Positions 17,365-50,460 of a stretch of 56,579 nucleotides of DNA are shown here, piece after piece. The translations under genes and the position numbers were made by a program. Within the stretch, counting starts at the first letter, position 1; every line of letters starts with the position of its first letter. The stretch comes from Mediterraneibacter gnavus (GTDB lineage Bacteria; Pseudomonadota; Alphaproteobacteria; RF32; CAG-239), in assembly GCA_963617265.1 (NCBI GenBank), contig CAVEOB010000004.1, positions 1-56,579 on the forward strand, in the 5' to 3' direction. The notes beneath the pieces are model-generated. The model had not been told where the DNA came from. It ran no database searches and saw only the letters and a program-made list of their open reading frames with translations.

Positions 17365-18402
17365 TTAACGTCCATTGGCCAACACCAGGATTAAATCGCA
17401 TCTTTGCTTGGAGCATACTCCGCATCTGGCAGCAATAACAGACAAATCAAACGGTTCACAGTGCATATCTTTGGCATAGTTGTCAGGAGCAGACTTTCCG
17501 CAAACAGTCAAAATACCGCCGCTTCGGCCGGTTATGCCCTCATTTAGCACAACAGCCCACGAATCGTCATATTCTGATTGTAAATAAAACATTTCTTTGC
17601 AAGTTTCTACCGCATTTGTATCCGGCAACGTCCAAAATCGTAAAAATAATCGTGACCCAATATTGCTGTTTGGTGGAGTAAAAGAATATATCTGCCAAGA
17701 ATTTCCAAACATATCTTTATTTTGCTCATCTAGCATATTTTGCGGAATAATTCCAATATCTTTATAAACATTCATCATCATTTGGTTATCGGTATTTGTA
17801 TAACTTTTTTCATTCATATACATAATCTTCAGATTTGATGTAAGAGTTACAATGTTTTCTTTCCAGCGATTTAATTTAAACTTCTGCATGGCTTTGGAGT
17901 AACCGGCAAGGCCACCGACACTCAGCACTGCGATTATTGCCAGCACGCCCAGCATTTCTATCATTGAACGGCCGTACTGCACTTGACTGTCAACATCATA
18001 CTTATCGCCACACTCCGCTGGCTGTGGCAGACGAGTATCCATGACTTTGTTGCTATAAGCAACGCTACTTTCTTCTCTCGCCACCAGAGAGAACATGCGT
18101 CCCCTGCACCAGTCATTCTCGGATTTATTCCGAGAATCTTCTCTCAACCAGTACTTATGCAACAATAAAGCTAATTTATTGACTAGGTTAGAGACTTGTT
18201 GCCAGAAGATTCTAGGCACGGGGCCTAGAATGACTGGTGCCAGAGGCGCGGGTTTTGTGCTTGTTGTAATGTTTTTGATACCCCTCACCCGACACTTTGT
18301 GTCGACCTCTCCCGCAAGGGGCGAGGTTACAGGATTACATCGCTTCGCTCGCACTAACGAGGGCGAGGTTTTAAATTTATCTGACTTTGAATTATTTTTC
18401 AT
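17365..18402 (-). CDS. Type IV pilin/pseudopilin-like protein with a 143-codon open 5' extension
   Basis: G-RSMIEMLGVLAIIAVLSVGG, with the Gly codon at 17973..17971, Glu at +5 and a hydrophobic helix, is a prepilin cleavage/methylation-type motif. C-terminal Cys pairs are present. The ATG at 18402 has AGGAAG 5 nt upstream. The mature part (17365..17970) is confident; translation of the extension is not. Confidence 0.6.
   Translation of the reverse strand: MKNNSKSDKFKTSPSLVRAKRCNPVTSPLAGEVDTKCRVRGIKNITTSTKPAPLAPVILGPVPRIFWQQVSNLVNKLALLLHKYWLREDSRNKSENDWCRGRMFSLVAREESSVAYSNKVMDTRLPQPAECGDKYDVDSQVQYGRSMIEMLGVLAIIAVLSVGGLAGYSKAMQKFKLNRWKENIVTLTSNLKIMYMNEKSYTNTDNQMMMNVYKDIGIIPQNMLDEQNKDMFGNSWQIYSFTPPNSNIGSRLFLRFWTLPDTNAVETCKEMFYLQSEYDDSWAVVLNEGITGRSGGILTVCGKSAPDNYAKDMHCEPFDLSVIAARCGVCSKQRCDLILVLANGR
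18107..18239. repeat. Inverted pair of REP-like hairpin modules inside the pilin-like 5' extension
   Basis: caccagtcattct-[cggatttattccg]-agaatcttc (18107-18141) and its inverse gaagattct-[aggcacggggcct]-agaatgactggtg (18205-18239). The arms are identical; the hairpin tops differ but both stay self-complementary. Confidence 0.8.
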
Positions 18403-18592
18403 TTCAACTTCCTTTCGTTTAGAATTACAACAAAAAAGCCGCTTGATGAGAGCGACCGGAAGTTGAGAACTATTGCTTATAAGTATAGTGTAGCATATTA
18501 GCGTATAGCCTATTTTGCTACCTTCCGATCAATAGACCAGAAGGTATTTAACGTCAAATGTTTGACGTATAAGCAAGAGGTTCTCACACCCC
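18403..18592 (-). promoter_or_regulatory. Structured 5' leader, copy A (paralogue of 50224-50440), with terminator
   Basis: Block-wise similarity to copy B, covarying helices, identical CUC/UA internal loop, identical CUCAUCA terminator loop and complementarity to the downstream SD. See findings. Confidence 0.6.
18432..18457 (-). terminator. Intrinsic terminator inside leader A
   Basis: Minus strand: GUCGCU-CUCAUCA-AGCGGC followed by U6, about 30 nt upstream of the ATG at 18402. Confidence 0.7.
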
Positions 18593-18649
18593 AGACAGAC
18601 TATCATCTATCCGTAGTAAGGTTACTAAAATATTCTGCAAAAGTAAAGT

Positions 18650-19147
18650 TTATTTTTGCCGGCACAGTGCTAAAATTTGCTGCAAAGCCTGCTCCGGATT
18701 TTCCAACGGAATTTTATGACCATTCAAAATACAGCTGTTGGATTGCTCGTCATAGTGGCAATACGGCGTGGCGAATTCTCTGCCGTAAATAGCGCTGTCA
18801 TCAATATGCACGCAAATATTCTGCTCTTTGCAATATTCAGCCTTGGCTTTGTTCCATAACTCATCGGCAACATGAAAAGATCCGTCGTCGTAAAATTCCA
18901 CCTGATGCCGCTGTTCGTAATAATCATAAATACACCAAAGTTTGGTATACGGAATTTGATATTGATTTAAATAGGCTAAAATCGTTTCACGCGGCCCGCC
19001 GCTGATAATATAAACTTCCAAGCCGATTTTTAAAGCTTCACGGCAAAATTCCCGAAAAAAATCCGGCCGGGTGTTTATCACCCCATGAAAATCCACGCCG
19101 ATTTTGGATTTAGTATCCGCTTGTGCCGTCGCCAAAGTTTTTTGCAT
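18650..19147 (-). CDS. HAD-superfamily hydrolase-like protein (NT5C-like)
   Basis: 165 aa. GVDFHGVI resembles HAD motif I (DxDGV with the second Asp replaced by His). Overlaps the preceding AsmA-like gene by 38 nt. Confidence 0.45.
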   Translation of the reverse strand: MQKTLATAQADTKSKIGVDFHGVINTRPDFFREFCREALKIGLEVYIISGGPRETILAYLNQYQIPYTKLWCIYDYYEQRHQVEFYDDGSFHVADELWNKAKAEYCKEQNICVHIDDSAIYGREFATPYCHYDEQSNSCILNGHKIPLENPEQALQQILALCRQK

Positions 19148-22100
19148 ACCATTCCTTTAATGAGTTAGGGCTGAGCATAGACAAAGAATTTATATCAACT
19201 TTTGCATCGTCGGCGTTACCGGTAATTTTGTAAGTAGCGGCAAAAATAGTGCCGTCTTTGCTGGCAAGCAGATTGCCGACAACCGGAATTTTGCCCAAAA
19301 AGCGGTTAATACTATACGCCGGAGCAATCACGCCGTTCATTTTAATATTATCAATAGCGCGGTTATAAGTGCCGTTAGTGGTGATACCGACCACATTGCC
19401 CTCTGCCTTAGCCTGTTTCAGGGTCAATATTTTATATTGATACTCAAACGGCGCGTTAAAGTGCGTAAAAGTCAATCCGTCACCTTTCAGCAAATCCAAC
19501 ATGCCGGTAAAGGACGCCACGCTCAAAAGTTTTGCCACCACTGGAGCATTTTGAATACTGAAATCACGCACCTGCATGTGTCCGATAAATTTTTTATCGG
19601 CTTGGCGGCGCGCTTCAATTTTCATAGTTCCGCCCACCATATTGTCATAGAGGCGCAAAACCTTAAATGTGCTGCCGGCGTTGTTACTGTCAATAGAAAG
19701 ATAATGCTCTTTGTTGCCTTTCGGAATATAGTCAAGCTTCAATTTAATAGACTTGTCAATTCCATAGTTGCCGACCATGTGCAGCTCTTCCATACCAATT
19801 CCTTTACGGATTTTAGCACTGCCCGCAAAGTTTTGAATCGGCGTGGTATTATTGGTCCACAAGCTGTTTACGGTCATAAATATATCGGTATTGTTAGCCT
19901 TTTCCAAGCCATCATCATCATTTTCCTGCACCGGCAGCTGTTTGCTGTTTTTCTGATGTTTGCTTTTAACCTGTTCAAAAAACGGTGATAAATCATAGCT
20001 TAGACCGGAAATTTCTACCTTCAGCCACGGATTTGCCGAATCACTCAGGCTGACTTTAGCACGCGCCGAGGTTTTCGGTCCTTTGATTTGGATGATGTCC
20101 ACCGACTTCACTCTGCCGTTTGCATACATAGTTAAATTGCCGGCAATATTAAAACCGGATTTTTGCAGTTTCAGATTTTTAACCGATTTCACTTTATCTT
20201 TCAGCAAAGTAACATCAGCGCTGGCGCTTGCCGTTTGATTCAGCGGCTTAACAAAGCCTAAATAAGCAAAGTCAATCGCCGTGTTTTTCAAATCTGCCTT
20301 GACCTTTACAGAGATTTCATCATTTTGCTGCACAGTTATATCCGCATCAACCAAAGCATAGCCGGAAATATTCGGCGCCTGCAACACCGCCCAATCCAAA
20401 CCCAAAGCTTTTTTAGCCGCGTCATCAAGCTTGAAAGAAATATTGCATTTGCTCTTATATTTTTTCTCGGCAAATTTTTCATTTATGGCAAGCTTTATCG
20501 GTAAAGCGTCATAGTCTGCCTCACCACTCAGGCTCCAGCCGGCAGAGTTAACCAACAGCTGCAAATTCTGTGCCGACAGAGTATGCCCAGGGACAAAGTC
20601 AGAATTAGAAACATCGTGCAAATCTGCCTTGACCTCAACCTTTATGTCATCGCTGTCTAAATCCTGTTTCAGCTCAAAGTCCAATTTCAGCTGCACATCA
20701 ACATTGCCGTGAATTGTTTTAGGGTCAACGCCCATTCCGGCGGCAATTTTCAAAGGCGGATTATTGATTAAATTCAGCGCGTCGGTAATGCTGGAGTTGC
20801 CGATAAGATTTATAGAAATAAAGTTGTCGTCTTTGTGCAAGTCATAAATGTTGACATTGCCGCCGGTTATGATAACGCTGTCGCTCACGCCTTTATCCAC
20901 ATCAATGGAAATATTCTGCATGCTGAATTTGGCGCGTCCGTAAACATTATGCACGTCAGGCATACCGTCCAAATAGTGCAAATCACCGTCTTCAAAATCG
21001 GCAACACCGTCTAAATTCAGCAAGCCGAAAGACTTTGCTTTATTATCATAGCCAAACTTAAACACAAACTTGCCGTTTTTAGCCTGTCCGCCGGTCAAGC
21101 CGTCCTTGCACCATTGCCAAGCCGGTTCGGCTAAATATCTAGGCCAAAAACGAGATAAATATTCTAAAGAAAATTCATCAATTTTTGCGGTAAATTCAGC
21201 GGTCACACCTTCTAGCGAATGTTCCAGATAATAGTTTTCCAAGCCCTTGGCGGCAAAGCTGATTTGCGCAGTCTGCCCGCCCATTTTGAAATCGGCGTTT
21301 TTAATATTCAGCTCGTCAAAACCGCCAGTAAGCTCTCCGGCTAGCACCATTTCATCTATTTCATAATTGTACTTTTCATCATTATCAAAAGCCACATAGC
21401 CGTGACCGCCGTCCAGCTCAAAATTGATTTTCTTTACAGCGTCGCTCAAATATGCAGCAGCATTTTCCGGATGCTGTAAAATATCCGAAACATCTATTTC
21501 CGTATCAATTTTGCCGTTAACCGGCACATTTATGCTAAACTGCAGCGGAGTTTCATTTTCTGCCGGCTGCGTATCCAAACTGCTCATAATATCCGATAAA
21601 ATCAAATCAGAAAAATAAACTTCCAAATCCAACTTATCGCTGGAAGCGTGATATTCGCTTTCAAAACCAACCGACGCAACTTTATCGTTTAAGTTAACCA
21701 AAGCATCGGCGTTAAGCTCCAAATTAACCAAATTGCGGCTGAACTCAAAGTTCAAATCCGAAAGCATCCATTTGCGCCCCAAGTCAACTTCATGAAATTC
21801 CACTTCGGCGCCTTTGATATTGATGTTATTGACATAGCTTTCCGGATAAATTTTTTCCGGTGAATTATAATTGTTCAGAAAATCCTTGAACTTATCGACA
21901 TAAAATGCCAATTTCTTTTTGTTTGCCTCGTCGATATGCTCTTTTTCCACCCCGTAATCGGCAAAAATATAGACTGTCGGATTATCCAAGCTGACATCGC
22001 TTGGGGCAATAATACCCTTCAGCAAAGCACGCAGACTGAATGATAAATAAAGCTTTGGCGCACTGATGGCAAAAGTTCCGTCTTTCTTTTTAAGGTTAAT

Positions 22101-22346
22101 ATCTTCAGCGGTAATGCGCAGCGGCTGCACCGAACGCACCAGCTCCAAATTAACTTTGCCCAAACCAACGCTGTAATCGCTTTCATCATAGTTCAAAGCC
22201 TGAATAATATACGGTTTTAAATATGGAACGGAAATCGGACCTTTATATAATGTCCAAAAAAATAAAAGCACGACCACTAACATTCCAACCATAAAAAAAT
22301 CTATGGCTTTGCGAAAAAAATATGATTGCGGCGACAGTTTTTTCAT
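19110..22346 (-). CDS. AsmA/YhdP-family (DUF3971-type) envelope protein
   Basis: 1078 aa with a single N-terminal TM helix and a long beta-rich body. C-terminal GTIFAATYKITGNADDAKVDINSLSMLSPNSLKEW resembles the AsmA-like C-terminal region of YhdP-type proteins. Confidence 0.7.
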   Translation of the reverse strand: MKKLSPQSYFFRKAIDFFMVGMLVVVLLFFWTLYKGPISVPYLKPYIIQALNYDESDYSVGLGKVNLELVRSVQPLRITAEDINLKKKDGTFAISAPKLYLSFSLRALLKGIIAPSDVSLDNPTVYIFADYGVEKEHIDEANKKKLAFYVDKFKDFLNNYNSPEKIYPESYVNNINIKGAEVEFHEVDLGRKWMLSDLNFEFSRNLVNLELNADALVNLNDKVASVGFESEYHASSDKLDLEVYFSDLILSDIMSSLDTQPAENETPLQFSINVPVNGKIDTEIDVSDILQHPENAAAYLSDAVKKINFELDGGHGYVAFDNDEKYNYEIDEMVLAGELTGGFDELNIKNADFKMGGQTAQISFAAKGLENYYLEHSLEGVTAEFTAKIDEFSLEYLSRFWPRYLAEPAWQWCKDGLTGGQAKNGKFVFKFGYDNKAKSFGLLNLDGVADFEDGDLHYLDGMPDVHNVYGRAKFSMQNISIDVDKGVSDSVIITGGNVNIYDLHKDDNFISINLIGNSSITDALNLINNPPLKIAAGMGVDPKTIHGNVDVQLKLDFELKQDLDSDDIKVEVKADLHDVSNSDFVPGHTLSAQNLQLLVNSAGWSLSGEADYDALPIKLAINEKFAEKKYKSKCNISFKLDDAAKKALGLDWAVLQAPNISGYALVDADITVQQNDEISVKVKADLKNTAIDFAYLGFVKPLNQTASASADVTLLKDKVKSVKNLKLQKSGFNIAGNLTMYANGRVKSVDIIQIKGPKTSARAKVSLSDSANPWLKVEISGLSYDLSPFFEQVKSKHQKNSKQLPVQENDDDGLEKANNTDIFMTVNSLWTNNTTPIQNFAGSAKIRKGIGMEELHMVGNYGIDKSIKLKLDYIPKGNKEHYLSIDSNNAGSTFKVLRLYDNMVGGTMKIEARRQADKKFIGHMQVRDFSIQNAPVVAKLLSVASFTGMLDLLKGDGLTFTHFNAPFEYQYKILTLKQAKAEGNVVGITTNGTYNRAIDNIKMNGVIAPAYSINRFLGKIPVVGNLLASKDGTIFAATYKITGNADDAKVDINSLSMLSPNSLKEWYAKNFGDGTSGY

Positions 22347-22358
22347 TATTTTTCCAAA

Positions 22359-23475
22359 CTAAGCAGCTGTAGTGTCATTTTGTATTTTTTGCGCCAGCGC
22401 TGCCGACAAGAACAAATCTATATCACCGTCCAGCACGCTTTTTACATCGGCGGTTTCGGCATCGGTACGCAAATCTTTTATCAAGCGGTACGGCTGCAAA
22501 ACATAAGAGCGAATTTGGAAACCCCAGCCATTATCGCCTTGATTGTCACGCACTTCCTGAGCTTTGTCGGCACGCTTCTGCATTTCTCTTTCATATAAGC
22601 GCGCCCGCAGCATTTTCCAACAGTTATCGCGGTTTTGAAATTGCGAACGCTGGGTTTGGCTGGAAACGACAATACCAGTCGGAATATGGGTAATACGCAC
22701 AGCCGAATCCGTTTTGTTAATGTGCTGACCGCCAGCGCCAGAAGCACGATAAGTATCAATACGGCAATCTGCTTCATTGATTTCTATTTGAATATTGTCA
22801 TCAACTACCGGATAGACGCCGATAGAGGCAAAGCTGGTATGGCGGCGGGCGGCGCTGTCAAACGGCGAAATACGCACCAAGCGATGCACTCCGCTTTCCG
22901 ACTTCAGCCAGCCGTAAGCGTTGTGCCCGCTGATTTTGATAGTTGCAGATTTCAATCCAGCGACTTCGCCTTCGGTTTCTTCTATATATTCAACCTTATA
23001 GTGATGAGTTTCAGCCCAACGCGTGTACATACGCAAAAGCATCTGCGCCCAATCCATAGCTTCGGTGCCGCCGCTGCCGGCATGAACTTCCAAATAGGTG
23101 TCATTAGCATCGGCTTCGCCGGAAAGCAAAGCTTCAAGCTCGGCGTGCTTAACCGTTGCCTGCAGTTCATCTAAATTATGCTGCAGCTCGCCAAGCATAG
23201 CTTCATCATTTTCGCTTTCGGCAAATTCAACCATTTCGGCATAGTCGTCCAATGATTTTACATAGCCGTCGTAAGCGTCTAATGAAGCTTCCAAAGTGTT
23301 TTTTTCACTCATCAGCTTTTGGGCTTTTTCCTGATTATCCCAAAGATTGGGGTCGGCGGACAAGGCTTCCAGCTCCTCGCGGCGCTGCACAGCATTGTCA
23401 TAGTCAAAGAGACCTCCTTAGCAATGCCAGCGATTGCTTGATTTCATTGATTAAATTATAAAATTCGGCTTTCAT
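22359..23475 (-). CDS. prfB: Peptide chain release factor 2 (programmed +1 frameshift)
   Basis: Frame 0 runs from ATG 23475 (MKAEFYNLINEIKQSLALLRRSL) to an in-frame TGA at 23406..23404. The +1 frame continues DYDNAVQRREE... and contains SPF (RISPFDS) and GGQ (SGAGGQHINKT). Confidence 0.93.
23404..23418 (-). promoter_or_regulatory. RF2 programmed +1 frameshift site
   Basis: Minus strand: AGGAGG-UCU-CUU-UGA-C, with the internal SD at 23418..23413, slippery CUU at 23409..23407 and UGA at 23406..23404. Confidence 0.9.
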
Positions 23476-23477
23476 TT

Positions 23478-27225: not shown

Positions 27226-27652
27226 AGATATACCTCATTTTGCGAAAAATTATAGAATTTACTTATTACCAATATGTTAAAATTTATATTTTTATGGCAA
27301 AATTTTAAAAAATTTATTGTTTTTTTATTTTTCTTTATTATGCTAACGATGTTTTCCGGTTGGAAATGATTTTTAATTTGAGGGTTTTTATTAGACAGGA
27401 AAAAATCATTTTCAGCATTAACGGAAGCAAAAAGTTTGGGTTAGATAACAACCCTTTCGGCATTTTCTAATAAGCAAGAAGAATAAGGAAGAAATAACGG
27501 AAGGGCACAAAAAGCAAAACAACGCCGCCGCCTTTAAAAATATGAGCGGATTTGGTATTATTTTTTAGTTTACGCCGTTGGCGGATTTTGCAGACAATTA
27601 TCATGCCCGTGGGATTAACGGCTTATTTTAAGCCATGTTATGGGGTTATATA
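27226..27652 (+). promoter_or_regulatory. Long rne 5' untranslated leader
   Basis: About 430-bp non-coding gap ahead of rne, containing long-range complementary segments (GGAAATGATTTTT ... AAAAAATCATTTTC). Confidence 0.45.
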
Positions 27653-31346: not shown

Positions 31347-31374
31347 TTGACTTATGGCGTGAGGCTGCTATAGA
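31347..31374 (+). promoter_or_regulatory. Sigma-70-like promoter of the second pilin-like locus
   Basis: TTGACT (31347-31352), 16-nt spacer, TATAGA (31369-31374), about 40 nt upstream of the SD and ATG at 31413. Confidence 0.55.
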
Positions 31375-31412
31375 CTATGTCTAATAATCAACATTAAAAT
31401 GAGGAAAGAAAG

Positions 31413-32326
31413 ATGAAAAATAAGCAAACAAAAGGTCTCTCTCTCTCTCTGCGAATCCTATACGTCTGATTAGAGGCGCTTTTTCTGCCATTCAGCACGT
31501 TTTTGCAGGGTTTAGTAAAAAAATATACAGTTTTAAACACCCCTCTCTCTCAACGTCATGCTTGAGCGTGAGCGATAGCGAACTGTCTCGAGAATCCAGA
31601 AATAAAGAGTCCATATTCTTTAAGCGGATATACCATACTGGATCCTCGGCGAATGAGCTGACGCTCAAAGCCAATGATGACCATAAGAGTGTGCTGCAAA
31701 GTGGTCGTTCTATGATTGAAATGCTCGGAGTGTTGGCGATTATCGGTGTTTTATCTGTCGGCGGGATTGCAGGATTCACTAAAGCAATGCGCATGTATCG
31801 CTCGAATATTCAAAAAGAACTGCTGGTTCAGATTTTTGCCAATGCCATAAATTTGCGGTCAGAACTCGCCGCAATGAAAAATAATGTTTCAGGTAAAATA
31901 ACCTATATTTTTGATGTGTTAGGATTGGTTCCTGACGGTATAACCTATAAAAATGGCTGGCTCTATGATAAAGATGGCAATAATTTAGATGTTTATTATG
32001 GAATGGTTCGTTGGAATAATACTGATGGCAGCACTTCCAGCCGTTTAGAATATATGGTTCGGTTAGGATTACAGCATAATTCAGCAATGCTTTCTCCCAG
32101 CGCCGAAGATTTTTGTGAAAACGCTATATTTGTGGCTCAGCAAAATATCAAAGATATTGAAAAAGTTGTAATGTTTCAATACGATAAAGATGCTTTAAAT
32201 CACAATAAAGCCACAACCTTTACTCAAAATAGACTTAGATCAATAACCATAGCAGAAGCGCAAAGCCTTTGTCGGTGGTGCAACATAGATGAAGCTTGCA
32301 CTTTGCAGCTATACATTTATCCTTAA
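31413..32326 (+). CDS. Type IV pilin/pseudopilin-like paralogue; start codon currently out of frame (putative phase-OFF)
   Basis: G-RSMIEMLGVLAIIGVLSVGG with the Gly codon at 31703. The pilin frame is open from 31424 to 32326 but has no nearby ATG. A promoter, SD (GAGGAAAG) and ATG at 31413 sit in another frame that stops at TGA 31467. The two frames are separated by a (CT)7 tract. Confidence 0.6.
31436..31450 (+). repeat. Dinucleotide simple-sequence repeat T(CT)7 inside the 5' coding region
   Basis: tctctctctctctct lies directly after codon 8 (GGT) of the ATG-initiated frame. Confidence 0.95.
31619..31673 (+). repeat. 55-bp repeat, copy 1 (inside the pilin-like leader)
   Basis: tttaagcggatataccatactggatcctcggcgaatgagctgacgctcaaagcca; 48/55 identical to 44827-44881, with the last 33 nt at 32/33. 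Confidence 0.85.
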
Positions 32327-38675: not shown

Positions 38676-39557
38676 TCAGCGGACTTTGTCATTTTTCTGC
38701 AAAGACTCCCGCAAAAGCTTTTTCATTTCTGCCGAATATGAACGCTTTGGCGCTTTGGGGTTCGAATCCTTGTTTTTTATTTGCGATTTCATTTTAATTT
38801 CGCTCAAACGGGCGGTTTGTCCTGATTTTTGCAGAATCAACTCGGCTGTGGCGTTTTTAGACATATTCTTTTTGCCGATTTTAGCTGCGTCGTCAAAACT
38901 CATGCCTTTAACTTTTTTATTTTTAGTGGTTTCAACAATCCTTTTAACGCCTTTTACCACCTTACCGGTGTTATGTTTGGTAACATGCCCTTTCAGCCCG
39001 ACTTTTTTTGCAACATTTTCTTCAAAAGTCTGTTCACGCAAACGGCGCGGATTATATATTGCGTCCTGTATATGGTTCATATAATCATCGTTAGTCATTT
39101 TAGAAATGCCGGCTTTGCGCGACAAAGTGTCGGCTTGCTGCATGGCGTTGAATTTGCCAGCGTTATCTTCCATTCGGTTATTTTCTATGGTGCTGCGCTG
39201 ACCGATAAAATGTTTTTCTGCCGGAGACAAGGCGTTTAAGAGAGTTGTATCATTATTGGACGCGTCATTAGCGTTCATCTCCAATTCGCGCAGCAGTCTG
39301 AAAACTTCATCGTCAGGAGCGCTGTCATTGTCATCATCTTCATCATACGGATTACGGACTTTTTTGCGCAAGCTCTTCAAAGCCGGCGATAAATCGCCCA
39401 GTTTAGCCTTACCGTTCTTAGCCTGATAGCGGTTCGCCTCTTGGGCGTCTATGCGCAAAGACAAGCGCTCTGAAGGAACAAAGCCCTTTTTATTCCAATC
39501 AAAAGCAGCTTTAGCGGTTTCGCCTTGAGTTTCTGTTTGCGTATCTTCCATTTTCAT
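38676..39557 (-). CDS. Hypothetical highly charged protein
   Basis: 293-aa ORF rich in Lys, Asp, Glu and Asn. No signal peptide and no recognisable domain. Confidence 0.45.
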   Translation of the reverse strand: MKMEDTQTETQGETAKAAFDWNKKGFVPSERLSLRIDAQEANRYQAKNGKAKLGDLSPALKSLRKKVRNPYDEDDDNDSAPDDEVFRLLRELEMNANDASNNDTTLLNALSPAEKHFIGQRSTIENNRMEDNAGKFNAMQQADTLSRKAGISKMTNDDYMNHIQDAIYNPRRLREQTFEENVAKKVGLKGHVTKHNTGKVVKGVKRIVETTKNKKVKGMSFDDAAKIGKKNMSKNATAELILQKSGQTARLSEIKMKSQIKNKDSNPKAPKRSYSAEMKKLLRESLQKNDKVR

Positions 39558-43772: not shown

Positions 43773-43816
43773 TTAAAGTGTTTTAAGTATAATTTTGTTT
43801 AATTTATTATTTGGCT

Positions 43817-44674
43817 ATGAATTTTAAACTATTTGCGGACTCTCAGTTAGTTCTTGTTGAAAACAACGGTAAGTACAATCTCTGCCACATGGATTGCGAT
43901 GACGAAAGCCACATTGAAATCACGCCGCTGGAATTTGCTTCGACAGATTCAGCTCCGCGGGTGGAAGTTGAGTTGGGGTTGATTTTCAGCTCTAACGGCG
44001 TGTACGATTTTGAGGGAAAAAAAGTCTCCGACTTTTCGCACACCAAATTTGCAGTGCACAAAATGCACGGTGAAGACAACTTCTTGATTGTCGACGCGGC
44101 TTGCAGCGAAATTCTTTTGCTGAACGGCAGCAAAATTGTGCTGAATGCCGCCGCCAAAGCAGTCAAGCGCTCTAAGCGCTACATTGCCTTTATTGGCAAT
44201 GGTAAATGGCAACTTTATCGCTACAACGGTTTCAAGCTGTCGTTTGCCGTGCCAATACCGGAAGACAACAAATTGTTTTTAGGCGACAGCTTAGTTGTTT
44301 GCGGCACGCCGGGGAACTATCGCCTGTATTCTCTTTATGACAAAGAGGTGCTGTGCGAAAAGCAAAACCACATTCACTGCAGTCCGACCCAGCATTTTGC
44401 CATTTGCTCGGAGCTCACCGGTAAAAAAGCCAACATTTTCTACAACGGCTATTGGAAGTCGTTTGACAATGTTGAAGAATTCACCATCGTAAACGACACG
44501 CACCGGTTGTTTGCTTTGCGCTGTAACGGCAAGTATTTCGTCTACAACTATGACGGAACACCCGACTACGACCTGGCTAAATTGTATCCCAACGGGATGG
44601 ATTTTGTCTGTTTCAACGATGGCTTGCTGATGGTTATGGACAATGGCAGCACAAACTTCTATTCTCGCGGCTAA
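43817..44674 (+). CDS. Hypothetical protein with WG/KWG-like beta repeats
   Basis: Repeated GK(W/Y)xLYxYxG-like units (GKWQLYRYNG, GNYRLYSLYD, GKYFVYNYDG). A TTGACA-N17-TATATA promoter lies at 43744-43772. Confidence 0.5.
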   Translation: MNFKLFADSQLVLVENNGKYNLCHMDCDDESHIEITPLEFASTDSAPRVEVELGLIFSSNGVYDFEGKKVSDFSHTKFAVHKMHGEDNFLIVDAACSEILLLNGSKIVLNAAAKAVKRSKRYIAFIGNGKWQLYRYNGFKLSFAVPIPEDNKLFLGDSLVVCGTPGNYRLYSLYDKEVLCEKQNHIHCSPTQHFAICSELTGKKANIFYNGYWKSFDNVEEFTIVNDTHRLFALRCNGKYFVYNYDGTPDYDLAKLYPNGMDFVCFNDGLLMVMDNGSTNFYSRG

Positions 44675-44690
44675 ACGAGAATGAACAACA

Positions 44691-44726: not shown

Positions 44727-44739
44727 ATTTATACAGTAC

Positions 44740-44776
44740 AAAAAACTCCGATGGATTGGGAACCATCGGAGTTTTT
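44740..44776. terminator. Bidirectional intrinsic terminator
   Basis: A6-CTCCGATGG-ATTGGGAA-CCATCGGAG-T5, about 120 nt beyond the stop of the Cys-rich gene. Confidence 0.8.
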
Positions 44777-44826
44777 GATATAATTAGGATTAGTTGTTTT
44801 GATTTTTGTTTTGCCTTACCTCCTTT

Positions 44827-44881
44827 TTTAAGCGGCTATATTGTTCTAGATCCTCGGCGAATGAGCTAACGCTCAAAGCCA
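44827..44881 (+). repeat. 55-bp repeat, copy 2 (3' flank of the Cys-rich gene)
   Basis: tttaagcggctatattgttctagatcctcggcgaatgagctaacgctcaaagcca, in the same orientation as copy 1. Confidence 0.85.
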
Positions 44882-44897
44882 TGGGGGACAAATTATA

Positions 44898-46532
44898 TTA
44901 GTCATACCAATCGTAATAATAAGTATTTCCATCATCGTTAGGCTTTGCTTGACCGTTCCAACTTGGTTTTTGGATACTAAAATTATACATAGTACAATTA
45001 CAAGCTCCTGGTCCACCACATGCACCTGAATATTCTTTCCAGCATGAACCTACACCACTGCTACTTCCACTAGAAATAGTCGCAGAACCTTGGAATTGAT
45101 AACTTCCATTATCTTCATAACCCTCACCCAAGTGGTCATCAATCCTCCAACAATCTACATCTCCTTCGTAAAAAACAGTGATATCCTCTTTTACTGGTTG
45201 ATCAGATATTAACTTCAGACAATGACCAGTTGTGCCATCAACAATTCCATCGACATACTCCCAATCAATCGATATATGGACTTCTTTATTAGTTGAAGAC
45301 GGAGATTCACTGCCGCATTGCTCGCCGCCTTTTAACGGAATTTGCAAAGTAGCTTCACTGTTGACAACGGTATAGCCGGCTGCCTTAGCTTTTTCAATCA
45401 TGCAGCTTTTACGCTCAGCGTCGTCCGCCGCATCTTTTGCACATTCGGTATCAGCGACAAAATATTCCGCATTCGGCATAAAGAAGTCTTCACCTGTGCT
45501 TTCATCTTTCAGCAGGTGGATAGCAACATCTGCATCGCTTACAAAAACACTATCCTCCTTGTCAAAATCGAAATCATGATATTTTAATTCATAGGTTTCA
45601 ACCCCTGCTACATTGCAAGCGTCATTGTCATATTTTCCGGTGTCGGCATTCTTGCGTCCGCAGTCATCACCGGCTTTTGTGCAGGTATACGGATTAGTGC
45701 TATCAACTAAGTTTTCGGACAGACCCCACAAAAGTTCTTTTCCAATACTTTCAAAATTATTCCACAATGTTTTAGGAATAACTGTTCCACTGATATTGTT
45801 GTTAACGTTGCTGCCAGTACCGTTACCATAGAACATATATTTTATCTTACCTGTAACATCGCTTGGACAAGTCCCGCCGTTGCAGGTATATTTAAATTTA
45901 AAGGTTATAGTGGTAGGTTCGCTATTCGTTTCACAGATTCCGCACTTGTTGCTGTATCCGTCAACTTTATCGCCAAGCACAAACGTTTCACCGGTTTTAC
46001 AGTTTGCAGCTGTTTGCAAACCGCCCATTTGCGAGCAGGCTAATTTTTCACAAGTACCGCATACGCCATCACTACCGGTTTCGCCATTGTCTTTGAATCC
46101 TAAATATTCTTTGCCGCAGCCAGTTGTTTTTGATATATATCCCTTATCTTTGCAGGTTGGATCAGCCACCAACTTATAGCAATTGCCGCAAACCAAACAT
46201 TTAGAATTAACTTGAGCGTTTTTGGCTGCAGTTTTGCATTCACTTATACTGCCATAGATGCCGTTGCTATGGTTTAGATCTGTGTCGCATTTAATATACC
46301 AGCATAATTTGTTGTCGTTTTGATAGGCTTTTTCACAAGTTTTATCTTTTATTTTAGCTTCTGCTGCTTCTTGGGAGTTATATTGGCAACAGGTTGTGCA
46401 AACAGGAGGCTCAGAAGGTTTGCCCATTCCGCAATCTTTTGAGTCCGGTAAAAAACACACCCTTGCAAAAACCGGAGTCGCAGCCATGCATAAAACCCCG
46501 ATAAAACACAATTTATTCAATAATTTAAACAT
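44898..46532 (-). CDS. Large Cys-rich secreted protein of unknown function
   Basis: 544 aa with signal peptide MFKLLNKLCFIGVLCMAATPVFA. Many Cys residues occur in short spacings (CTTCCQ, CLVCGNC, CGTCEKLAC, CGICE, CGGPGACNC). Strong SD GGGAGGA. Confidence 0.7.
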   Translation of the reverse strand: MFKLLNKLCFIGVLCMAATPVFARVCFLPDSKDCGMGKPSEPPVCTTCCQYNSQEAAEAKIKDKTCEKAYQNDNKLCWYIKCDTDLNHSNGIYGSISECKTAAKNAQVNSKCLVCGNCYKLVADPTCKDKGYISKTTGCGKEYLGFKDNGETGSDGVCGTCEKLACSQMGGLQTAANCKTGETFVLGDKVDGYSNKCGICETNSEPTTITFKFKYTCNGGTCPSDVTGKIKYMFYGNGTGSNVNNNISGTVIPKTLWNNFESIGKELLWGLSENLVDSTNPYTCTKAGDDCGRKNADTGKYDNDACNVAGVETYELKYHDFDFDKEDSVFVSDADVAIHLLKDESTGEDFFMPNAEYFVADTECAKDAADDAERKSCMIEKAKAAGYTVVNSEATLQIPLKGGEQCGSESPSSTNKEVHISIDWEYVDGIVDGTTGHCLKLISDQPVKEDITVFYEGDVDCWRIDDHLGEGYEDNGSYQFQGSATISSGSSSGVGSCWKEYSGACGGPGACNCTMYNFSIQKPSWNGQAKPNDDGNTYYYDWYD

Positions 46533-46550
46533 AATACGATCCTCCCTGCT

Positions 46551-46735
46551 GTGTAAAAAAAACGACCGTTATTTTTACACACTAAAAAGGCTATTTTTGT
46601 AATATTACGAAATATTTCAGAATTATGAAGAAAATTGAGCAATCTTAAATAGTTATTGCAAAAAAATCGTAAAATATTGTATACTAAAAGTATTAGAGGT
46701 AAAGTGTGTAAAAATAACGGTCGTTTTTTTTACAC
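46551..46735. promoter_or_regulatory. Candidate invertible promoter element (inverton): 32-bp perfect inverted repeats flanking 121 bp
   Basis: IR-L at 46551-46582 (gtgtaaaaaaaacgaccgttatttttacacac) is the exact reverse complement of IR-R at 46704-46735. Confidence 0.5.
46656..46685 (+). promoter_or_regulatory. Sigma-70-like promoter inside the IR-flanked segment, pointing away from the Cys-rich gene
   Basis: TTGCAA (46656-46661), 18-nt spacer, TATACT (46680-46685). It currently faces the 3' end of a convergent gene. Confidence 0.45.
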
Positions 46736-46759
46736 ACTTTTTTCACAAAAATGAAGCTA

Positions 46760-48325
46760 TTATTTAGATAGCGAATACACCGCTTTTAAGCCGTCTGCCG
46801 CAGCCGAGGTTATACCGCCGGCATAGCCGGCGCCCTCGCCGCAAGGATACAGCCCTTTGACATTGCTTTGCATGGTTTCATCACGCACTATCCTCACTGG
46901 CGAAGAACTGCGGGTTTCAACTCCGGTCAAAACCGCGTCATAGCAATCAAATCCGTGCAATTTTTTAGCCATTTCCACAATACCCAGCCGCAAAGAATCC
47001 GCTATTTCTTCCGGCAGAACCTGTTTAAATCCGCCTAAAGCCACCCCCGGAAGATAGGACGGACGCACCTCGCCTAACTTTTGTGAAACTTTGCGCCGCA
47101 AGAAATCTCCGACCAAAACCGCCGGCGCGCGATATGATTTGTCACCGGCAATAAAAGCGTTTTCCTCTAATTTACGCTGAAAATACATACCAGCCAGCGG
47201 ATTGCTGCTACCAAAATCTTTTTCGGAAACACCAACCAGCAAAGCCGAATTAGCATTCTCAGCCGCGCGGGCAAACTCGCTCATACCGTTTGTCACGACA
47301 CGTCCTTTTTCGGAAGCAGCCGCCACAACCACACCGCCCGGACACATGCAAAACGTATATACCGAGCGTCCGTTGGGCAAATGCACCGCCATTTTATAGT
47401 CAGCCGCGCCCAAATACGGGCTTTCCGCCGCTTTGCCGTACTGCGCTTTATTTATCAGGGTTTGTTTGTGTTCAATTCTAGCGCCGACTGAAAACGATTT
47501 TTGCTCCATGTGCACGCCTGAATTATACAGCATCTCAAAAGTATCGCGCGCGCTGTGACCGATAGCCAAAAACAGCTTGTTTGCTGGCAATTCATAAGTT
47601 TCTTTTTCGTTCGTAATTTTAATTGCAGCAAGTTTATCGTTTTTGATAACAAGTCCGGTTAACTGACTGTTAAAACGATATTCTCCGCCCAAAGACAGTA
47701 TTTTTTGCCGAATATTTTTAACAACCAAACGCAGTTTATCCGTACCAATATGCGGCTTTGCCAAATAAAGAATTTCTTGAGGAGCTCCGGCGGCGGCAAA
47801 TTCTTGCAAAACTTTAGCGGTGAACTTGTCTTTTTTGATGCCTGTCATCAGCTTGCCGTCCGAAAAAGTACCAGCACCGCCCTCTCCGAACTGCACGTTG
47901 GAATTGGCTTTAAGCTCGCCGCCCTGCCAAAACGCCGCCACATCTTTTTGACGCTGCTCCACTGGCGCGCCGCGCTCCAAAATAATCGGGTTCAAACCGG
48001 CTTCAGCCAAAGCAAGACCAGCAAACATACCGGCTGGACCGCTGCCAACCACAATTGGACGCACGCCGTCAGCCTTGAGGTTAAACGTTAGTTTTTCCAC
48101 TTCCGGCAGCTGCTCAATATCTTTGTCACGCACTGTTGAAACCGCATTGCAATCCACGCTGTATACAAAATGCACATTGTTTTTGCTGCGCGCGTCAACC
48201 GATTTTTTGGATACGGCGAAATTTTGGAGTTCTGTTTCTTTAACCCCCAATTTTTGCGCGGCTTTTTGTTTGAGCTGCTGTTCGCTTGCGTTCAGCGGCA
48301 TAGAAATATTGTTAATGCGTAACAT
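46760..48325 (-). CDS. FAD-dependent oxidoreductase (COG2509-type NAD(FAD)-utilising dehydrogenase)
   Basis: 521 aa with dinucleotide-binding fingerprint VVGSGPAGMFAGLALAEAG and conserved C-terminal GEGAGYAGGI. Confidence 0.8.
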   Translation of the reverse strand: MLRINNISMPLNASEQQLKQKAAQKLGVKETELQNFAVSKKSVDARSKNNVHFVYSVDCNAVSTVRDKDIEQLPEVEKLTFNLKADGVRPIVVGSGPAGMFAGLALAEAGLNPIILERGAPVEQRQKDVAAFWQGGELKANSNVQFGEGGAGTFSDGKLMTGIKKDKFTAKVLQEFAAAGAPQEILYLAKPHIGTDKLRLVVKNIRQKILSLGGEYRFNSQLTGLVIKNDKLAAIKITNEKETYELPANKLFLAIGHSARDTFEMLYNSGVHMEQKSFSVGARIEHKQTLINKAQYGKAAESPYLGAADYKMAVHLPNGRSVYTFCMCPGGVVVAAASEKGRVVTNGMSEFARAAENANSALLVGVSEKDFGSSNPLAGMYFQRKLEENAFIAGDKSYRAPAVLVGDFLRRKVSQKLGEVRPSYLPGVALGGFKQVLPEEIADSLRLGIVEMAKKLHGFDCYDAVLTGVETRSSSPVRIVRDETMQSNVKGLYPCGEGAGYAGGITSAAADGLKAVYSLSK

Positions 48326-48377
48326 AATATACCCCTTTGTTATGGGGCTATATTACACAAAAAACGCAAATTTGCAA

Positions 48378-48689
48378 TTATTCTTTGTTGTCTTCGGCGC
48401 TGTCGTTACGCAAAATCTGCCACAGCGGACGGCGGTACATCCACAAGTTTATGACACCGAGTACCACCGACATAGAACCAAAAATATATAAGAGATAGTA
48501 CCAGTTCAGGTTATCCGCCGACATCATCACGTCTTGATTGGTTACCCGCAAAAAACCGATTGCCACAGCCGTTACCACAAATGCGGCAATAAATGCTAAA
48601 GTCCATATGCGGTGCACCACGTTTTTATTGACCATGGCGGCGGTGATGAAATAGATAAAAACAAGCGATATGAGCAAATATAATTCCAT
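48378..48689 (-). CDS. Small integral membrane protein
   Basis: 103 aa with three predicted hydrophobic helices. No family recognised. Confidence 0.45.
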   Translation of the reverse strand: MELYLLISLVFIYFITAAMVNKNVVHRIWTLAFIAAFVVTAVAIGFLRVTNQDVMMSADNLNWYYLLYIFGSMSVVLGVINLWMYRRPLWQILRNDSAEDNKE

Positions 48690-48772
48690 AGGTTTTCTCC
48701 TTGCTGTGGAGATAATCTAAATTAAAAAAATTTCAATAGTTGGGAATAATTTGCAAAAAATTAAAAAAGTTA

Positions 48773-48801
48773 TTGACTAGGTGCAAAACATACGTTAAAA
48801 A
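48773..48801 (+). promoter_or_regulatory. Sigma-70-like promoter for tRNA-Ser
   Basis: TTGACT (48773-48778), 17-nt spacer, TAAAAA (48796-48801), about 20 nt upstream of the tRNA 5' end. Confidence 0.5.
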
Positions 48802-48820
48802 TGTTTTCGTTATCACTGAT

Positions 48821-48909
48821 GGAGCGTTGGCAGAGTGGTAATGCAGCGGATTGCTAATCCGTCATCCCCTTAAAAGGATGCACAGGTTCGAGTCCTGTAC
48901 GCTCCGCCA
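48821..48909 (+). tRNA. tRNA-Ser (anticodon GCU), CCA encoded
   Basis: Hand-folded cloverleaf: acceptor GGAGCGU/ACGCUCC, 3-bp D stem, anticodon arm GCGGA-UUGCUAA-UCCGU, long variable arm CAUCC...GGAUG, T arm ACAGG-UUCGAGU-CCUGU, discriminator G and CCA. Confidence 0.93.
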
Positions 48910-48949
48910 ATAAAACCCCATAGGGTCTGTCCCTGTGGGGTTTTGTTGT
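48891..48949 (+). repeat. Direct repeat copy 1 (tRNA-Ser 3' end plus terminator)
   Basis: 59 bp, agtcctgtacgctccgccaataaaaccccatagggtctgtccctgtggggttttgttgt, repeated at 49118-49176 with one mismatch. Confidence 0.9.
48912..48944 (+). terminator. Intrinsic terminator after tRNA-Ser
   Basis: AAAACCCCAUAGGG-UCUGU-CCCUGUGGGGUUUU hairpin followed by a U run. Confidence 0.8.
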
Positions 48950-49117
48950 GTGGTAAAAGCGGTAGGACTCGAACCGTAAGGCGTGCTAAGGAAAAACTGT
49001 CCTAAATGACAGTTTTTCTCTGCAAACGCAGCGAAAACTTAATTGAGCAAGGGCTGCGGCAGCAACCGCGGCGAGATTTTGTTTGAGTTGCGATAGAGTT
49101 TTACATAAGTAAAACGC

Positions 49118-49176
49118 AGTCCTGTACGCTCTGCCAATAAAACCCCATAGGGTCTGTCCCTGTGGGGTTTTGTTGT
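49118..49176 (+). repeat. Direct repeat copy 2 (att-like duplicate of the tRNA-Ser 3' end plus terminator)
   Basis: 58/59 identical to 48891-48949 (C to T in the acceptor arm). The copies are separated by 168 bp. Confidence 0.9.
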
Positions 49177-49203
49177 ATAGAATTTTATTCATTATAAAGC
49201 GTG

Positions 49204-50223
49204 CTAAATTTTACCATATATTTTGCGGTATATTTTCAGCCAAAATGCTAAACGGGAAAAATCACCGCTCAAAAACATTTTACATAAGAATCGGTTAAAC
49301 AAGCTTAGTTCTGTCGGGAAAAACACCTTTTGCGCCGCTAAATCCAAGCAGATTTGCCGATATTTATGCCAATAGCTTTGATAATCAGCGTTTTTGAAAT
49401 ACGGATACGAACAGCATTGCCTAAAAATTATTCTCGAAAAATTTTTCTTCATCAGTTCATAACTTTTTATGTCTTCCATTGCCGCAAAATGCGTCATTAT
49501 TTTTTGAGCCAGCAAAATATGGTCGTTAATTTCTCGCTCCGAAAACTTTTGATGTGTCAAACTGCTTTCTGTCTGCCGGTAGAACATAAGCTTTTCTTTT
49601 ACGCATACTGATTTTTTTACTCGTTCAAACACTAAAAATGAGTAATAATAATCTTCAGCCATTTGTTTAAAATCCGCCGAAAAGTACAAGTCTTTTAAAA
49701 TTTCCCGCTTATACAATTTTCCCCAAACTGCTATTTGCAGCTTGGGCTTTTGTTTTTTAATATAGTGTAAAAATAAATTACTGCCGTCCTGCAGCGAACA
49801 GCTATTGCTTTTTATTATCAGGTTTTTACGCTTTTTCTCTTTTAAGCACCAAGCCATATCGCTATTTGTTTTTTCCAGCGCAGTTGTCATATATTCCATA
49901 AACTGGCAATGCAGCATATCGTCCGCATCTAAAAAAGCGATATAATCACCTTGGGCTTTTTGCAAAGCCGCGTTACGCACTGCCGAAACACCGGAATTTT
50001 TTTGATTTATAAGCACAAAACGACTGTCTTTTGCCGCATACTCCTGCAAAATTTGCCAAGAACTGTCTGCCGAGCCATCATTGACGCAGATAGCTTCCCA
50101 ATAAGGATATGTCTGCGCCTGCAAGCTGTCTAAACACAAGGCTAAATATTTTTCTGCATTATAAACGGGAACAATCACCGAAACCAGTTTGCCGGAGCTG
50201 TTTTCTTTGGATTTTATTTTCAT
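49204..50223 (-). CDS. Family 2 glycosyltransferase
   Basis: VSVIVPVYNAEKYLALCLDSLQAQTY and a DADD motif (DxD). The ATG at 50223 (MKIKSK) is preceded by GGAG, and the ATG at 50235 lies inside that SD. Confidence 0.85.
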   Translation of the reverse strand: MKIKSKENSSGKLVSVIVPVYNAEKYLALCLDSLQAQTYPYWEAICVNDGSADSSWQILQEYAAKDSRFVLINQKNSGVSAVRNAALQKAQGDYIAFLDADDMLHCQFMEYMTTALEKTNSDMAWCLKEKKRKNLIIKSNSCSLQDGSNLFLHYIKKQKPKLQIAVWGKLYKREILKDLYFSADFKQMAEDYYYSFLVFERVKKSVCVKEKLMFYRQTESSLTHQKFSEREINDHILLAQKIMTHFAAMEDIKSYELMKKNFSRIIFRQCCSYPYFKNADYQSYWHKYRQICLDLAAQKVFFPTELSLFNRFLCKMFLSGDFSRLAFWLKIYRKIYGKI

Positions 50224-50230
50224 CACTTTC

Positions 50231-50255
50231 TCCATTAGAGGGTTCTAAACCCCAC
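50231..50255. repeat. 25-bp direct repeat, RBS-proximal copy
   Basis: tccattagagggttctaaaccccac; 24/25 identical to 50411-50435. Overlaps the SD (GGAG) of the glycosyltransferase gene. Confidence 0.9.
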
Positions 50256-50283
50256 AAAAAAAGCCGCCTTGATGAGAGGCAGC
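50256..50283 (-). terminator. Intrinsic terminator inside leader B
   Basis: Minus strand: GCUGCCU-CUCAUCA-AGGCGGC followed by U7, about 30 nt upstream of the glycosyltransferase start. Confidence 0.7.
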
Positions 50284-50410
50284 AGGAAGTTAGAACCTAT
50301 AATGGAAATAGTGTAGTGTATTTGGCGTAAGAGCAAGCTCCTACGCCTTATTAACCACCTTCCTGCTCTGACGCAACAAGGTAGTTTTTCTCATCTGGAA
50401 AAACCAGCTA

Positions 50411-50435
50411 TCCATTAGAGGGTTCTAAACCTCAC
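50411..50435. repeat. 25-bp direct repeat, leader-5' copy
   Basis: tccattagagggttctaaacctcac. Forms the 5' strand of the outer helix of leader B. Confidence 0.9.
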
Positions 50436-50460
50436 ACCGGTAATCAGCCGATGCAATTTA

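Follow-up and report, generated by a model that had tools for sequence, protein, structure and literature searches.

Type IVb pilins, such as PilS of Salmonella Typhi and of R64, bundlin (BfpA) of enteropathogenic Escherichia coli and TcpA of Vibrio cholerae, carry a class III signal peptide ending in glycine, with a glutamate at position +5, a hydrophobic α1-N helix, a mature part of about 200 amino acids (aa) and a +1 residue other than phenylalanine. The leaders described for prepilins comprise 6–26 aa (up to about 30), are cytoplasmic and are removed at the cytoplasmic face (Berry & Pelicic 2015, PMC4471445). We analyzed a stretch of 56.6 kb (hereafter the window; contig CAVEOB010000004.1 of assembly GCA_963617265.1), which holds two pilin-like genes, pilin A and pilin B, a gene for a Cys-rich secreted protein and one for a family 2 glycosyltransferase (GT2). 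On balance, we favor the interpretation that the window carries two orphan members of a large and dispersed type IVb pilin family, that this family and a few surface genes are run from interchangeable 5′ units, and that the leader peptides have been inflated in frame. The co-regulated surface genes of the window would be those for GT2 and the Cys-rich protein, and the 5′ units would be of three kinds, namely a transcription attenuator (pilin A and GT2), a (TC)n start module (pilin B) and a promoter cassette (Cys-rich gene). The machinery assembling the window pilins would be encoded elsewhere, and in-frame insertion of small selfish DNA would have enlarged leaders that are normally tiny, by a factor of about 20 at most.

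A homology search with pilin A retrieved 4806 proteins, all from metagenomes or metagenome-assembled genomes (MAGs), and more than 593 genomic stretches matched the family when one genome per species was scanned; the exact pilin A protein had no record in the assembly collection. Relatives of the window genes were found only in gut and rumen metagenomes and in MAGs labelled Alphaproteobacteria, several of which hold at least 6–7 paralogues each among the 80 loci listed. The canonical member of the family has about 200–210 aa and a short leader, M(K/R)xNxxG↓RSMIEMLGVLAII, in which the N-terminus G↓RSMIEMLGVLAII is invariant and the leader measures 6–12 aa in most cases. Both window pilins display the class III features, that is, a leader ending in Gly, about 20 hydrophobic residues and Glu at +5 (G↓RSMIEMLGVLAIIAVLSVGGLAGY in pilin A, G↓RSMIEMLGVLAIIGVLSVGGIAGF in pilin B); they are 26% identical overall, with nearly identical N-terminal 30 aa. 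The N_methyl motif was recognizable, at a sub-threshold score, in 10 of 12 family members, and the full-length open reading frames (ORFs) of the window pilins gave no match in Pfam. The AlphaFold (AF2) model of mature pilin A (pLDDT 82), compared with the PDB by Foldseek, had as its top and only convincing match the type IVb pilin PilS of S. Typhi (3fhu_A; probability 0.99, TM-score 0.61, E = 0.018). In two related loci (L013 and L035) the gene order is T2SSE ATPase, T2SSF platform, a bundlin-like gene and then GRSMIEML pilins, and the pilin relatives there match PilS at 59–60 bits and Bundlin at 46–50 bits, both above threshold.

The fold match to S. Typhi PilS, together with the Pfam matches of the relatives and their linkage to T2SSE and T2SSF, argues that the GRSMIEML genes of these gut and rumen Alphaproteobacteria encode type IVb pilins of the PilS/bundlin kind, the window copies being orphans. 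A preliminary description of this DNA, made from the sequence alone, had doubted that they were conventional type IV pilins, a doubt that these results speak against. It had also named an opposite outcome, ordinary pseudopilins of a type II secretion system (T2SS) with short leaders, half of which came true: most leaders of the family are indeed 6–12 aa long, whereas the proteins are predicted to be type IVb pilins and the long leaders to be genuine in-frame inserts. The census of the family that it proposed gave the counts reported above. Its statement that no prepilin peptidase, secretion ATPase or platform gene lies nearby agrees with a Pfam scan of the window ORFs, which found no domain of an ATPase, a platform protein or a peptidase of a T2SS or type IV pilus (three ORFs at 53.5–56.6 kb lay outside the scan), and with the absence of a traffic-ATPase Walker A motif from all frames of the window. 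The assembly genes that it proposed to locate were found in part, as the ATPase and platform genes preceding the relatives in L013 and L035, and without the peptidase; a search for the peptidase pattern GGGDxK had no match in 1.35 Mb of loci, a weak scan that is not evidence of absence. Compared with the described type IVb pilins, the present family is distinguished by the dispersal of at least 6–7 paralogues over a genome, as counted in the loci retrieved, with 25 or more promoter cassettes in single assemblies, by Arg at +1, by the position of the window copies away from any assembly genes, and by leaders of 144 aa in the window and about 270 aa in relatives. A literature search on long type IVb leaders, on pili of RF32-type gut Alphaproteobacteria and on pilin-associated RNA motifs returned nothing relevant.

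Terminator/antiterminator riboswitches and protein-dependent attenuators consist of a covarying multi-helix 5′ domain ahead of antiterminator and terminator helices that exclude each other, and in Clostridioides c-di-GMP riboswitches lie upstream of pilus genes. The leader RNAs of pilin A and GT2 resemble the former in architecture and the latter in placing a conserved 5′ domain before pilus or surface genes. They are clearly paralogous, and a single covariance model scores them at 140 and 105 bits. Both of the terminator-containing structured leaders first noted are thus present and related to each other; their owners are pilin A and GT2, not the two pilins, and pilin B has no RNA leader of this type. 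The model (R1, 169 positions) was used over 1.35 Mb of related loci, nhmmer being run first and the covariance model afterwards, with 42 and 22 matches. This census of the leader motif, also suggested in the preliminary description, gave 52 strong copies, 48 of them before GRSMIEML pilin genes and 24–40 nucleotides (nt) upstream of a Shine–Dalgarno (SD) sequence and ATG. The remaining four stand before the window GT2, a lipoprotein gene, a 43-aa stub and, in one case, a region with no recognisable start downstream. In L001, from a related species, identity reaches 90.8% over the 240 nt that precede pilin A, against 79–84% for the flanking coding sequences, and a TCTTTACnTTT block occurs at a constant offset in most copies of the leader.

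The leader RNA, of about 170 nt, comprises a long closing helix (P1/P1b), hairpins P2, P3 and P4, and an intrinsic terminator with a U-run. Its six helices show two-sided changes at 41 of 44 pairs. Pairing is maintained in 92.7% of cells, compared with 36–49% when the partners are slid, and two-sided changes number 441 cells against 70–108 in the slid controls, with none of 500 shuffles reaching the observed value. RNAalifold run on the raw MAFFT alignment recovered the antiterminator, P4 and a small hairpin only; the other helices were obtained from a hand-drawn structure and realignment with the covariance model. The antiterminator joins the 3′ strand of P3 (GYYGGAAG) to CUUCCRRY, a segment that runs into the terminator stem. 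This helix is 92.4% paired and shows two-sided changes at 6 of 9 pairs, the alignment having been made without fitting to it. Terminator and antiterminator use common nucleotides and are mutually exclusive, and both covary. Since P3 gives up its 3′ strand when the antiterminator forms, it would be the anti-antiterminator of a three-state attenuator. With P3 folded, the terminator would form and the gene would be off; with P3 open, the antiterminator would pair and transcription would read through. From this covariation, the leader is predicted to be a conserved, conditional and riboswitch-like transcription attenuator that constitutes an undescribed RNA motif. It differs from known terminator/antiterminator riboswitches in that the antiterminator derives from the 3′ strand of the internal hairpin P3 and not from P1, and it had no match in Rfam 15, whether the gathering threshold or E ≤ 1 was applied.

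Regarding the peptide leaders, those of pilin A (144 aa) and pilin B (97 aa, if in phase) both exceed the described range, and 26–270 aa are reached in many relatives. These long leaders are built from a limited set of recurring peptide modules that correspond to translated palindromic DNA, and the modules of leaders A and B fall within pilin leaders in 70 of 79 matches, in either orientation. Conservation of the frame was assessed in two sets of genes selected independently of it, one by the promoter cassette alone and the other by the RNA leader alone. The frame is kept from ATG to G↓RSM in 39 of 40 cassette-chosen genes, whose 13 leader lengths are all multiples of 3, and in all 41 parsed genes of the second set, with leaders of 6–193 aa. 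In pilin A, the frame is open from an ATG 28 nt past the leader RNA, and both SD and ATG are absent near the Gly codon. The leader region has a marked RNA fold (z = −6.2) and contains a 61-nt inverted repeat (18092–18254). Its orthologue in L001 has a leader of 39 aa at the equivalent place, which points to fast leader turnover.

A pair of empty and filled sites from one MAG is consistent with insertion at the cleavage site itself: L061 reads ...SQSG↓RSMIEM, while L082 has 108 extra nt between the G-R and S codons. The 108-nt element is bounded by 9-nt terminal inverted repeats, CTTCTTCCG and CGGAAGAAG, the 3′ one of which encodes G-R-S, so that the cleavage motif is restored; 20 of its 22 copies lie in pilin leaders, most of them abutting the GRS codons. 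The long leaders claimed in the preliminary description can thus be retained, as open frames of 144 and 97 aa produced by in-frame palindromic modules, and they are predicted to be real open frames made of inserts resembling transposable elements of the miniature inverted-repeat kind (MITEs) or repetitive extragenic palindromes (REPs). Such elements would accumulate in frame in the stretch that runs from the start codon to the Gly of the cleavage site, and at least one type would target the G-R-S codons and regenerate them by its own terminal repeat. Because a prepilin leader is cytoplasmic and clipped at Gly, an insertion would be nearly neutral for the pilin, whose mature form is unchanged if the frame is kept. 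The closest precedent is that of the Rickettsia palindromic elements (RPEs), which Ogata and colleagues are said to have described in 2000 as small palindromic repeats lying in frame within coding genes. As with RPEs and MITEs, small palindromic repeats are here tolerated in frame at permissive positions of protein genes. Unlike RPEs, they are stacked in tandem in a single dispensable stretch, namely the n-region, on the cytoplasmic side, of a signal peptide that can be cleaved off, and at least one element type appears to target and regenerate the cleavage-site codons.

In the opa genes of Neisseria, a CTCTT coding repeat in the signal-peptide region shifts the frame according to its repeat number, and at a given moment the majority of copies are out of frame. 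Pilin B shares with them a pyrimidine-rich simple sequence repeat (SSR) within the leader-coding part of a multi-copy surface-protein family. The dinucleotide repeat had been presented as an upstream device; it is indeed present, and it sits within the leader-coding region of pilin B itself, not upstream of a separate gene. The TC tract lies 23 nt past the ATG at 31413, which is out of frame with the pilin by an offset of 2. The same start module was found at 27 further sites, and over the 28 sites n is 5, 6, 7 or 8, of which n = 6 alone is in frame. Downstream of the tract, the pilin frame is open for 65–297 codons to G↓RSM at every site where a pilin is reachable, which would be very unlikely without selection. 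In-frame proteins exist in the databases for n = 6 (GLSLSANP) and n = 12 (GLSLSLSLSANP, the tract length being deduced from the protein). Two paralogues of one MAG have n = 8 (L011) and n = 7 (L053), with 97% identity over the downstream 250 nt. A search for near-identical orthologous TC-repeat loci differing in n gave no pair with more than 95% identity on both flanks, and relaxed criteria gave paralogue-level comparisons only.

The (TC)n tract is therefore described here as a likely translational phase switch, OFF in this assembly (n = 7). Slipped-strand changes in n, in a tract that encodes (LS)n, would set whether the ATG shares the reading frame of the pilin. The view of the repeat as a toggle gains from its behavior as a frame-shifting SSR, with a length that varies among copies and an ORF that is always intact downstream. 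It differs from opa in being a TC dinucleotide of 5–12 copies and in serving pilins destined for prepilin peptidase, where opa genes encode outer-membrane proteins; the switching in pilin B is presumptive. Programmed ribosomal frameshifting at (TC)n was considered and rejected as unlikely, since n = 7 and n = 8 need opposite shifts. We also observed a terminator-like hairpin with a U-run directly past the tract (31463–31478), with the out-of-phase TGA (31467–31469) in its loop; by eye, on back-translated peptides, it seems to be kept in other copies with compensatory changes (CGUC/GGCG versus ACAUC/GGUGU). This hairpin might couple translational phase to transcription termination.

Invertible promoters, such as fimS of E. 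coli and the invertons of Bacteroides, lie between perfectly conserved inverted repeats upstream of surface-protein genes, as does the promoter of the Cys-rich gene. The gene-proximal arm of this cassette is located in the 5′ untranslated region (UTR), right before the ribosome-binding site (RBS; GGAGGA-ATG). As the Cys-rich protein has distant homologues only, the arm core was searched as a DNA pattern in metagenomes to test inversion. It was recovered in 92 stretches, where the arms are spaced at a fixed 153–155 nt, and single assemblies contain 25 copies or more. The arm sequence common with L007 and L029 (24–35 nt) is 100% identical across species, and in both loci the cassette stands directly upstream of pilin genes starting MLKS.. 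or MFKS... The conserved promoter, TTGCAA-N17-GATATT, is weaker in the window. In 41 paired-arm loci, the promoter faces the gene in every resolvable copy (about 30), as it does in L007 and L029, and no flipped orientation was seen among these copies. The inverted repeats of the preliminary description do surround a promoter, and their reading as an inverton is not supported by this uniform orientation; the cassette appears to be a fixed, multi-copy promoter/operator unit that is not invertible. In contrast to fimS and the Bacteroides invertons, it has one orientation only and dozens of copies per genome, its arms are themselves hairpins, and one arm is part of the 5′ UTR.

Homologues of the Cys-rich protein with a CFLPD(S/G) start follow the cassette in L085, L088, L092, L097, L100, L145, L147 and L160. 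The cassette thus precedes both pilin genes and Cys-rich homologues, which ties the Cys-rich protein to the pilin regulon. In three of these loci (L085 41–1621, L097 on the minus strand, and L147 from 11653 to the end), some 110–130 aa of REP-like modules are found in frame between the cassette ATG and the Sec signal peptide (...AAEA↓KICFLPDG), so that n-region insertion is not limited to prepilins; the n-region of the Cys-rich homologues is topologically equivalent to a prepilin leader. Pilin genes behind a leader RNA and pilin genes behind a cassette are often placed head to head, 100–300 nt apart (L138 1020–1452, L162, L155 and L149), and the two types of 5′ unit hence coexist in one genome and even in one locus.

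Three other explanations were weighed against these data. The two leaders, the SSR and an invertible promoter could be four independent stochastic ON/OFF switches that make the surface genes bimodal and phase-variable. The SSR evidence fits this proposal, as do inverted arms that are perfectly conserved across species around a promoter, like those of known invertons, and the many contigs that break at the arms. The breaks, however, are accounted for by the at least 25 copies of the cassette per genome, none of about 30 copies is flipped, and no recombinase domain was found in the scanned window ORFs, although such a gene could be encoded elsewhere. Covarying terminator and antiterminator alternatives are moreover typical of conditional attenuation, not of heritable switching; the earlier description of the leaders as expression toggles is not supported, and we judge the four-switch proposal quite unlikely. 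The fixed (TC)7 tract of a decaying family, with pilin B as a frameshifted pseudogene, would agree with n = 7 as the commonest state and with most copies being out of frame. Such decay is difficult to reconcile with a downstream frame that is open in every copy, mature domain included, with the alternation of n = 7 and n = 8 between near-identical paralogues, and with the existence of in-frame alleles (n = 6 and n = 12), which makes it very improbable.

The long leaders might, alternatively, be untranslated, the REP elements residing in a long 5′ UTR, translation starting at a cryptic site a few residues before Gly, and the ORFs being artefacts of gene calling. This explanation, which we consider unlikely, has to contend with a frame kept in 39/40 and 41/41 independently selected genes over at least 13 length classes, with a conserved SD-ATG-MKN start at the 5′ end, with the lack of SD or ATG near Gly in pilin A, and with a pilin frame that runs on without a stop for as many as 297 codons, also behind an out-of-phase ATG. 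It draws on module peptides that resemble translated palindromes rich in W, C and R, on the highly structured RNA of the pilin A leader region, and on in-frame ATGs found 11–24 codons before Gly in some modules, internal starts that gene callers sometimes pick (P0049 and P0075). The interpretation of the window as two orphan type IVb pilins with inflated leaders and interchangeable 5′ units is preferred to all three. Several points weigh against it. The Foldseek E-value of pilin A is no better than 0.018, its score on Pfam PilS (PF08805; 20.6 bits) is just under the cutoff of 22, Arg at +1 is unusual for pilins, and no prepilin peptidase was identified anywhere, L013 and L035 included. The value n = 7 dominates (14 of 28 sites), where more scatter would be expected of a highly mutable tract. 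Some modules bring internal ATGs, as in MTGGRGANSFG↓RSM, and a Met stands just ahead of the signal peptide in Cys-rich homologues, so internal initiation is possible. Finally, (TC)n switching and termination in the leader are inferred from sequence, and so are the translation of long leaders and their cleavage at Gly; the attenuator would respond to a signal that may be a ligand or a protein.

The features are collected in Table 1. Every item listed in the preliminary description (pilins, Cys-rich protein, GT2, leaders, TC tract, inverted repeats and the repeat joining loci) is present, each beyond chance. The link that it drew between the four genes through common cis elements was strengthened, as both the RNA leader (pilin A and GT2) and the promoter cassette (Cys-rich gene) recur across the gene family. 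The notion of a different cis switch for each gene survives in the linked elements and in the SSR-like TC tract, and is not supported for the leaders as stochastic toggles or for the inverted repeats as an invertible promoter. The repeat connecting the loci, given as 55 bp, has an actual size of 58 nt. The four genes, described as the only accessory-looking ones, are joined by further unannotated genes, for example at 43811–44674 and 38676–39557.

Table 1. Coordinates of the pilin, Cys-rich and GT2 loci and of their 5′ units in the window
Feature	Position	Strand	Description and basis
Pilin A ORF	17365–18402	−	345 aa; Gly(−1) at position 144, ahead of RSMIEMLGVLAII
Pilin A mature domain, RSMIEMLGVLAII... 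to stop	17365–17970	−	201 aa; type IVb pilin-like (ORF, motif, fold)
Pilin A leader-peptide coding region	17971–18402	−	144 codons from RBS-preceded ATG (MKNNSKS...) to Gly(−1); palindromic REP/MITE-like modules
Pilin A leader RNA, copy 1 (putative attenuator)	18431–18593	−	Covariance model R1, 140.5 bits; P1, P1b, P2, P3, P4
Pilin A leader terminator, then U-run	18437–18457	−	Pattern scan for terminators
Putative sigma-70-like promoter of leader RNA and pilin A	18619–18647	−	TTTACT-N17-TAACCT; sequence inspection
Pilin B promoter-like site	31347–31376	+	TTGACT-N18-TAGACT; consensus match only
Pilin B start module	31413–31469	+	RBS-preceded ATG 31413 (MKNKQTKG), then TC tract; frame ends at TGA 31467–31469, 18 codons
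(TC)7 SSR in leader-coding region	31436–31450	+	7.5 units by TRF; n = 6, 9 or 12 joins ATG to pilin frame
Pilin-frame open region, just past ATG to Gly(−1)	31424–31705	+	97-aa leader if in phase; 93/96 codons open
REP-like 58-nt module in pilin B leader	31616–31673	+	86% identical to 44824–44881
Pilin B mature domain	31706–32326	+	G↓RSM at 31703, stop 32326
Solo REP-like module, repeat family D12	44824–44881	+	Intergenic, just 3′ of Cys-rich gene; 86% identity to pilin B leader module
Cys-rich secreted protein	44898–46532	−	544 aa, 36 Cys; Sec signal peptide ...ATPVFA↓RVCFLPDS
Promoter cassette	46550–46736	−	About 190 nt; two 34-nt hairpin-forming inverted arms around 119 nt with TTGCAA −35
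Perfect 34-nt inverted arms	46550–46583 and 46703–46736		Flank 119 nt
GT2 glycosyltransferase	49204–50235	−	PF00535, 1.5e-34; likely start ATG 50223 (SD-ATG parse)
GT2 leader RNA, copy 2 (putative attenuator)	50256–50434	−	Covariance model R1, 105.1 bits; alignment to copy 1; terminator at 50256–50275

Around these loci, the window (GC 42.7%) encodes housekeeping functions of alphaproteobacterial type: RF2, PBP1A, AmiC, RNase E/G, RuvC, YebC, FtsH, a CcrM-like methylase, HPr/EIIA-Man, AccD, TrmFO, ClpXP, SSB and MnmA, with a single tRNA gene, for tRNA-Ser. A MORN-repeat protein of 719 aa (14124–16283) is the source of most direct-repeat families of the window (D1–D5 and D9), and it adjoins pgl and pilin A in L001 as well. 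A gap of 409 nt without translated frames lies upstream of the RNase E/G gene (27226–27634) and had no Rfam match. Among the contigs carrying pilin loci and leader RNAs, L006, L041, L047, L056, L063 and L037 are filed under Eubacteriales, Bacteroidaceae or Lactobacillus bins, probably through mis-binning.

At the GT2 locus, the leader RNA begins with some 25 nt (GGTTTAGAACCCTCTAATGGA, which supply the 5′ strand of P1) that recur just past the terminator, over the RBS and start of GT2 (50230–50255 versus 50409–50437). This repeat, the like of which was not seen in the pilin A leader copy, can be read as a scar of recombination or as an additional alternative partner for the 3′ strand of P1. Nearby, in the tRNA-Ser(GCT) region (48821–49176), the 3′ end of the tRNA and its downstream terminator hairpin are duplicated with 98% identity (48891–48949 and 49118–49176), and the 168 nt between the duplicates begin with the apparent 3′ half of another tRNA on the minus strand (about 48951–48975), ending in CCA. 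The duplication looks like a scar of integration at a tRNA. The leader-driven GT2 gene is found just beyond it, and L001 has a leader-driven pilin gene at that tRNA-adjacent position. In L001–L004, the gene of an FAD-dependent protein (46760–48325 in the window) has the leader and gene of pilin A right after it (the region compared being 3605–3774 in L001), and the 28 kb between 18628 and 46773 of the window, with housekeeping genes, pilin B and the Cys-rich gene, are absent from that place. The breakpoints of this rearrangement therefore coincide with two of the 5′ control units.

A broader reading would join these elements. Dozens of type IVb pilin genes per genome would serve as a contingency repertoire, their leaders would be a safe harbor for selfish DNA, and a new riboswitch class would control them; we hold this combination to be tenable and somewhat less probable than its negation. 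In it, MITEs would home to the cleavage-site codons, regenerate G↓RS and stack in frame, giving cleavable leaders 10–20 times longer than the longest described, and most of the pilin repertoire, along with glycosyltransferase and lipoprotein genes, would be under the undescribed riboswitch class. If correct, the findings would place a well-supported and unclassified cis-regulatory RNA, with more than 50 copies, strong covariation and a clear expression platform, over the pilus subunits of poorly known, uncultured gut bacteria, and ligand searches could take this RNA as their immediate target. The class III signal peptide, likewise, would tolerate and perhaps attract very large in-frame inserts, which bears on substrate recognition by prepilin peptidase and on the hiding places of selfish DNA in coding sequence. 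There is also a systematic problem of annotation, as gene callers assign these pilins many different starts and lengths. Finally, the (TC)n tract suggests that these commensals vary their pilus repertoire by SSR phase variation, which may be relevant to colonization and immune evasion.

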